Positions 10,097 through 10,111 of a stretch of DNA of 10,690 nucleotides are shown here, one piece after another. The stretch comes from a virus (Duplodnaviria > Heunggongvirae > Uroviricota > Caudoviricetes). Under the pieces are notes generated by a model. It was given only the letters and a program-made list of their open reading frames with translations. It did no database searches and had not been told where the DNA came from. Position numbers and translations under genes: made by a program. The stretch is from IMG/VR virus record IMGVR_UViG_2740892230_000009, positions 1 through 10,690 of that record, one strand, 5' to 3'. Position 1 is the stretch's first letter. The number at the start of each line of letters is the position of its first letter.

Positions 10097-10111
10097 GCGC
10101 TGACAAAGCGC
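10097..10111 (+). promoter_or_regulatory. Candidate nutL boxB hairpin
   Basis: GCGCU-GACAA-AGCGC (5-bp stem, pentaloop), matching my recollection of P22-type boxB; upstream of the N-like gene; both boxB candidates are preceded by CUACG. Confidence 0.6.

Follow-up and report, generated by a model that had tools for sequence, protein, structure and literature searches.

The window, by which we mean the whole stretch of 10,690 nt that was analysed, has TL-2011a as its nearest phage. Positions 9800-10690 (891 bases) are 99.9-100% identical to many Stx phages, among them 933W, P27, phi345 and TL-2011a, the value for the 933W record (AF125520) being 99.9%, and 610 of 5426 complete E. coli genomes carry the 251-nt leader. 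In addition to a nutL site, the 933W record annotates cI, cro, cII, the oR operators, the stk kinase and N. The leftward early region of the window contains the following features:

9999-10027, plus strand: pL-like promoter from a consensus scan, with -35 TTGATA (9999-10004), a 17-nt spacer and -10 CATTAT (10022-10027)
10045-10111, plus strand: nutL, mapped from the 933W annotation (AF125520, record positions 9614-9680, "nutL; putative N-utilization leftward")
10045-10053, plus strand: weak boxA-like start of the annotated nutL, CGCATTACT, with 4 mismatches to CGCTCTTA (leader alignments)
10077-10092, plus strand: spacer hairpin GATTC-GAATAT-GAATC, from folding (41-nt fragment, z = -4.0)
10097-10111, plus strand: nutL boxB, GCGCU-GACAA-AGCGC, from sequence, folding, the match to P22 and the comparison of loci
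10122-10141, plus strand: 5' arm of a 20-bp leader helix, from folding and covariation
10244-10264, plus strand: 3' arm of the same helix with a bulged base at 10253, from folding and covariation
10266-10271, plus strand: Shine-Dalgarno sequence AGGAGG of N, from sequence and conserved in the alignment
10277-10660, plus strand: N antitermination protein, 127 aa, Pfam PF25694 (N_peptide), 2e-15

The start of the pL transcript was placed by aligning the leader with the pL leaders of lambda and P22 (CATCAGCAGGACGC) and probably lies near 10032-10034. The leader alignment comprised HK97, P22 and Salmonella phages, and the lambda leader sequence was compared as well. The transcribed leader opens with the CAGCAGGACGC motif, which is common to the pL leaders of lambda, P22 and HK97. 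The boxB hairpin is found ∼65 nt downstream of the pL-like promoter and ∼65 nt into the transcript, and is followed after 166 nt by the ATG start codon of N. This is the arrangement of a lambdoid phage, in which the pL transcript carries nutL ahead of N and the pR transcript carries a second site after cro.

Two further elements are seen close to the promoter. The inverted repeat ACCAATAGTTC ... GAACTATTGGT at 9987-10020 (plus strand) flanks the -35 region of pL and presumably represents the oL operator half-sites for a CI repressor of the 933W type; the 933W record annotates oR1-3 but not oL. Just upstream of pL, the cI-stk-L0081 operon is closed by a strong intrinsic terminator at 9787-9808 (plus strand), AGCCCGGCC-TCAGCG-CCGGGTT followed by a T-run, which is annotated as tM in 933W.

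The sequence of the hairpin at 10097-10111 is GCGCTGACAAAGCGC. The RNA forms a hairpin in which a GACAA pentaloop caps the 5-bp stem GCGCU/AGCGC, and the isolated 15-mer has a dG of -7.1 kcal/mol and makes up 96% of its ensemble. The same hairpin is present in the minimum free energy (MFE) folds of 10060-10130 and of 10040-10280. The original prediction had described this stem and loop and had proposed the folding of 10060-10130 as a check; sequence, folding and an exact match in another phage (below) all agree with it. Lambdoid boxB elements consist of a short stem topped by a penta- or tetraloop of the GNRA-like kind, and the hairpin has this form. Its last base is also the last base of the mapped nutL annotation of 933W.

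By arithmetic, the exact 15-mer is expected ∼2x10^-5 times in 2 x 10,690 bases. When up to three mismatches were allowed, the window contained two matches, compared to a mean of 0.31 in shuffled sequences, and the second one is at the position expected for nutR. An Rfam scan of the whole window (E <= 1) gave no match, a result that is not informative either way on the nut site.

The nutR copy, the N protein and related nut sites

The second site is on the minus strand, between cro and cII, where the following features are found:

6629-6584, minus strand: nutR as annotated in 933W, mapped from the record and identical to H-19B nutR
6629-6621, minus strand: boxA-like CGCTATTTT, which departs from the consensus at 2 positions and precedes boxB by 22 nt
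6614-6603, minus strand: spacer hairpin GGAC-ATTC-GTCC, from folding
6598-6584, minus strand: nutR boxB, UCGCU-GACAA-AGCGA, a near-match to the 15-mer

With the sequence TCGCTGACAAAGCGA, this boxB is the sole other near-match to the 15-mer in the window. The GACAA loop is kept and the pair at the foot of the stem has changed from G-C to U-A, which is a compensatory change. Dyad symmetry in the spacer, typical of H-19B-type nut sites, is present in both nutL and nutR of the window, and both spacers are predicted to fold. In the alignment with Salmonella relatives, the stem of the nutL spacer hairpin is conserved and its loop differs (AGTGAT).

The N protein encoded in the window is 100% identical to that of 933W and matches HK97 N at 125 of 127 and H-19B N at 124 of 127 residues. 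Its arginine-rich motif (ARM), 12-RSRRRER-18, is located inside GNSRSRRRERLKAKALANG. A local alignment of the ARM with that of P22 N (RTQFKGNSRSRRRERLKAKAL vs KSTFAGNAKTRRHERRRKLAI) reached a score that none of 2000 shuffles equalled, and the two motifs are of the same type, with F-x-G-N...RR-x-ER in common. The two proteins could be aligned at the ARM and over their last 30 residues but not elsewhere, and a BLASTP alignment of the window's N with P22 gp24 was confined to the C-terminal 30 residues. A PDB sequence search with N gave a chance match alone, and the 1A4T peptide was not among the matches. The original prediction had described boxB as P22-type and had taken the gene downstream to be a homologue of N. 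This holds for the RNA, by identity of the 15-mer, and likewise for the ARM; in its entirety, the protein is an N of the H-19B/933W/HK97 kind and not a close homologue of P22 gp24.

In P22, the 15-nt boxB hairpin (GCGCUGACAAAGCGC), which is part of the annotated nutL (L009), is identical to that of the window. The P22 site has a canonical boxA, CGCTCTTTAA, 10 nt before boxB, whereas in the window boxA is not recognisable and the spacer, ∼43 nt long, contains a hairpin of its own. The nutL of lambda has the same position in the pL transcript and a homologous 5' leader (CAGCAGGACGCA...), but its boxA, CGCUCUUA, is canonical and the stem and loop sequences of its boxB, GCCCU-GAAGA-AGGGC, are unlike those of the window. 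The flipped-out base of the loop is the fourth in the lambda peptide-RNA structure and the third in that of P22. In the complex of the P22 N peptide with its RNA (PDB 1A4T), the GACAA pentaloop has its C flipped out (PMC12550061), and a His and an Arg of P22 N are reported to contact this base (PMC12550061). When the numbering of the 1A4T peptide is laid onto the ARM alignment, these contacts would map to R16 and K20 in the window's N.

The closest likeness is to the nut sites of 933W and H-19B, which share the GACAA boxB, the spacer hairpin and the poor boxA with the window. The nutL of 933W has the same sequence as that of the window. The nutL of H-19B differs at one base, a C for T at 10050, which is also the sole difference in its leader from CAGCAGGACGCA to GGGGTG. 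The window's nutR has the very sequence of the H-19B nutR that was studied experimentally: H-19B N antiterminates at H-19B nutR/tR1 in reporter assays (PMC3526286), and these experiments used nutR, not nutL (PMC3526286). Together with NusA and NusG, H-19B N shields the nascent RNA against RNase H and RNase T1 at the spacer and at boxB (PMC3526286), and in the footprints the G of the boxB loop was protected and boxA was not (PMC3526286). Random mutagenesis of H-19B N yielded the loss-of-function mutations R3H, S11F, R15C, R15P and R18P in the nut-binding region, and of these the ARM mutants R15C, R15P and R18P abolish antitermination (PMC3526286). All the residues hit by these mutations are identical in the window's N.

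We searched the segment from the pL start to the nutL boxB for boxA, CGCTCTT(T)A, and the best match had 4 mismatches of 8-9 positions. In the whole window, 223 matches were found at 3 mismatches and 222 were expected, which is chance level. The annotated nutL begins with CGCATTACT. Its lambda homologue, CGCACTGAC at the 5' end of the pL leader, is not the boxA of that phage. The earlier remark that boxB has no convincing boxA upstream was therefore correct, as nothing was found with three mismatches or fewer. Because nutL lacks the boxA of a canonical lambda/P22-type nut site, we assign it to the H-19B-type subclass and not to the canonical boxA-dependent class. A nutL without boxA is a known trait of the H-19B-type nut class. 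Judging from the title of Neely and Friedman 2000, H-19B N reportedly has less need of host factors, which the missing boxA fits, and BoxA, NusB and S10 are said to be dispensable for it. That study is the one cited in PMC3526286 for the H-19B/933W nut system (GenBank AF034975, AF125520).

Loop type and ARM type across related loci

To compare the hairpin between loci, we used the pattern ATGAATCTACG-N10-24-ACCAAAGTGA, which is made up of the sequences flanking boxB. It occurs in at least 119 IMG/VR stretches, and together with the fetched phage records at least 126 matches were obtained. Among the matches listed, three boxB modules are found at this fixed position between the flanks, each with an ARM type of its own in N:

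GCGCU-GACAA-AGCGC, with ARM GNSRSRRRERLKAKALANG (..RRRERLKAKALANG, RLK): 80 of 80 among the matches listed, where N was readable
(C/A)GGCU-GAAA-AGCC(G/U), with ARM GSAAGRRRERRAALQ (RRA): 34 of 34 among the matches listed, where N was readable
GCUCC-GUCAA-CGAGC, with ARM GTSRARRRERLKAKALANG: 6 loci among the matches listed

These counts come largely from related prophages and not from independent lineages. The stems vary across loci by compensatory changes, and the loop type of nutL is the same as that of nutR within each genome (GACAA in 64 of 64 and GAAA in 15 of 15, among the matches listed). Constant flanks between which loop and ARM are swapped together are the pattern that an RNA-protein recognition pair predicts. 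The window itself carries a cognate N whose ARM type matches its boxB loop type, as in lambdoid phages. An alignment with the nut sites of phages with similar N proteins had been suggested in the original prediction, and in it the loop type agrees with the ARM type wherever N could be read.

The second module is exemplified by epsilon34, g341c and VT2-Sakai. Their nut sites have the same flanking leader, spacer hairpin and position as the window, and the C-terminal two-thirds of their N is homologous to the window's N; their boxB, however, has a true GNRA tetraloop in place of the GACAA pentaloop, and their N has the ARM GSAAGRRRERRAALQ. This GAAA loop replaces GACAA at identical flanks in four of the compared loci (L005, L006, L007 and L008) and in many IMG/VR loci, at positions equivalent to 10095-10113 of the window for nutL and to 6598-6584 for nutR. 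A novel BoxB specificity was predicted for the N of this class in the epsilon34 genome paper (PMC2629481).

The third module was seen in Salmonella phage SPN9CC (L004), where nutL lies ∼150 nt upstream of N, and in at least five IMG/VR loci. Its GUCAA loop is closed by a C.C mismatch, like that of P22 nutR (CCGCC-GACAA-CGCGG). The N proteins that go with it have T10 and A13 instead of N10 and S13, and nutR in these genomes still has a GACAA loop, with a U.G pair. The pairing of loop and ARM is not strictly one-to-one, since a GUCAA loop of the SPN9CC type goes with a nearly identical ARM.

We conclude with little residual doubt that the hairpin is the nutL boxB of a lambdoid phage of the 933W/H-19B (Shiga-toxin) type. 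Short hairpins are common, and the 71-nt context folds only modestly better than shuffled sequences (z = -1.36), as one would expect from a GC-rich palindrome that arose by chance and has no function. Such a palindrome would hardly be identical to the 15-nt boxB of P22, recur with a compensatory change at the nutR position and have a loop type coupled to the ARM type of N, and these three observations exclude it to within a negligible probability; the site is, moreover, annotated as nutL and belongs to a nut family that has been studied. We give equally little weight to the idea that the palindrome is incidental to a small coding gene. An open reading frame for a 52-aa hypothetical protein, with a TTG start, does exist at 10016-10174 (plus strand) and is annotated in the phi345 record (PV189402), but its start codon falls between the -35 and -10 elements of pL, upstream of the likely start of the transcript. 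In HK97 a 1-nt deletion with identical flanks breaks the frame, and the relatives swap the 15-nt boxB module alone, thereby keeping the RNA pairing and not the frame. The start inside pL and the frame break in HK97 indicate that the open reading frame is likely an annotation artefact.

For nutL of the window, the steps of antitermination can be outlined from the literature and by analogy. RNA polymerase starting at pL would transcribe boxB early in the leftward transcript, and the nascent RNA is predicted to fold into the 5-bp stem with its GACAA pentaloop. Going by P22, the loop would take a GNRA-like fold with the third base (C) extruded. The arginine-rich N-terminus of the N protein encoded downstream would then bind the hairpin and NusA would join at the spacer, with the RNA looped back to the polymerase. 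The resulting N complex is expected to make the elongation complex resistant to termination, which would allow readthrough of downstream terminators into the delayed-early genes, and nutR after cro would play the same role for the rightward operon.

Regulation of delayed-early expression in lambdoid prophages, including those of Shiga-toxin phages, starts with antitermination by N at nutL and nutR, and this expression leads on to the Q, toxin and lysis genes. As nutL is already annotated in 933W and its family has been characterised experimentally in H-19B, the site is already known; confirming boxB does no more than assign the window correctly. Modestly useful comparative by-products, which add no new principle, are the coupling of loop and ARM across swapped modules and a covarying leader helix that is common to lambda.

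The leader helix adjoining the N ribosome-binding site

The 20-bp helix, whose 5' arm follows closely on boxB, spans a long range of the leader, and a single nucleotide separates its 3' arm from the AGGAGG Shine-Dalgarno sequence of N. Over 29 distinct arm pairs, 98.1% of cells were paired, compared to ∼40% with the partner slid. Changes on both sides were seen in 8 of the 20 pairs, and no shuffle attained the observed covariation score. The arms enclose inserts that are unrelated in sequence, and the leaders, counted from boxB to ATG, are 102 to 260 nt long. H-19B has kept the arms of the helix, but inside the leader, between nutL and N, its sequence is not that of the window, as in a mosaic swap. 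A homologous helix, CUUUGGGGUGUG/CACACCACCAAAG (CUUUGGGGUGUGUG/CACACACCACCAAAG), adjoins the N ribosome-binding site in the N leader of lambda.

Cleavage of the lambda N-leader helix by RNase III affects the translation of N. By their titles, Kameyama 1991 and Wilson 2002 reportedly link RNase III to lambda N synthesis, and Wilson 1997 is said to point in the same direction for lambda N autoregulation. Going by this analogy, the helix in the window is probably an RNase III site and a translational control element for N. In lambda, ∼200 nt of highly structured RNA separate nutL from N downstream, and N together with Nus factors at NutL represses N translation (PMC5725501). From the likeness of the two leaders, we consider that the lambda autoregulatory module is very probably present in the leader of the window.

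It could be argued from this that the nutL boxB is mainly an operator, at which N, the Nus factors and polymerase repress the translation of N, that the 20-bp helix is an RNase III site uncoupling nutL from the N ribosome-binding site, and that antitermination is secondary. The layout is indeed lambda-like, with nutL ∼170-200 nt upstream of N and a conserved helix 1 nt from the Shine-Dalgarno sequence, and the titles of Wilson 1997, Wilson 2002 and Kameyama 1991 agree with such a role. Autoregulation of lambda N via NutL (PMC5725501) also speaks for it. However, repression at nutL leaves room for antitermination, as the lambda site does both jobs, and nutR has the same boxB without an N gene downstream. 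We therefore regard it as very improbable that repression is the main function, and any part that nutL has in the translational autoregulation of N is likely to come on top of antitermination and not to replace it.

With nutL as an antitermination site that may have this additional role, its boxA-less boxB of the 933W type and the 20-bp helix could form one autoregulatory module, in which nutL-bound N represses its own translation and RNase III cleavage relieves the repression. This is a tentative proposal that we are slightly more inclined to doubt than to accept. Such autoregulation is established for lambda only, using boxA together with NusB and S10, and in phages of the 933W type it would have to work without them. 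If the module does operate in this way, it would determine how much N, and through it how much Q and toxin, is expressed after induction.

A potential local hairpin of 6 bp, CCAAAG-UGAA-CUUUGG, is located at 10117-10132 (plus strand), where it could compete with the long-range helix for CUUUGG; this hairpin was absent from the MFE folds. CCAAAG occurs a second time at 10254-10259. It is possible that the local hairpin and the leader helix represent an alternative-structure switch.
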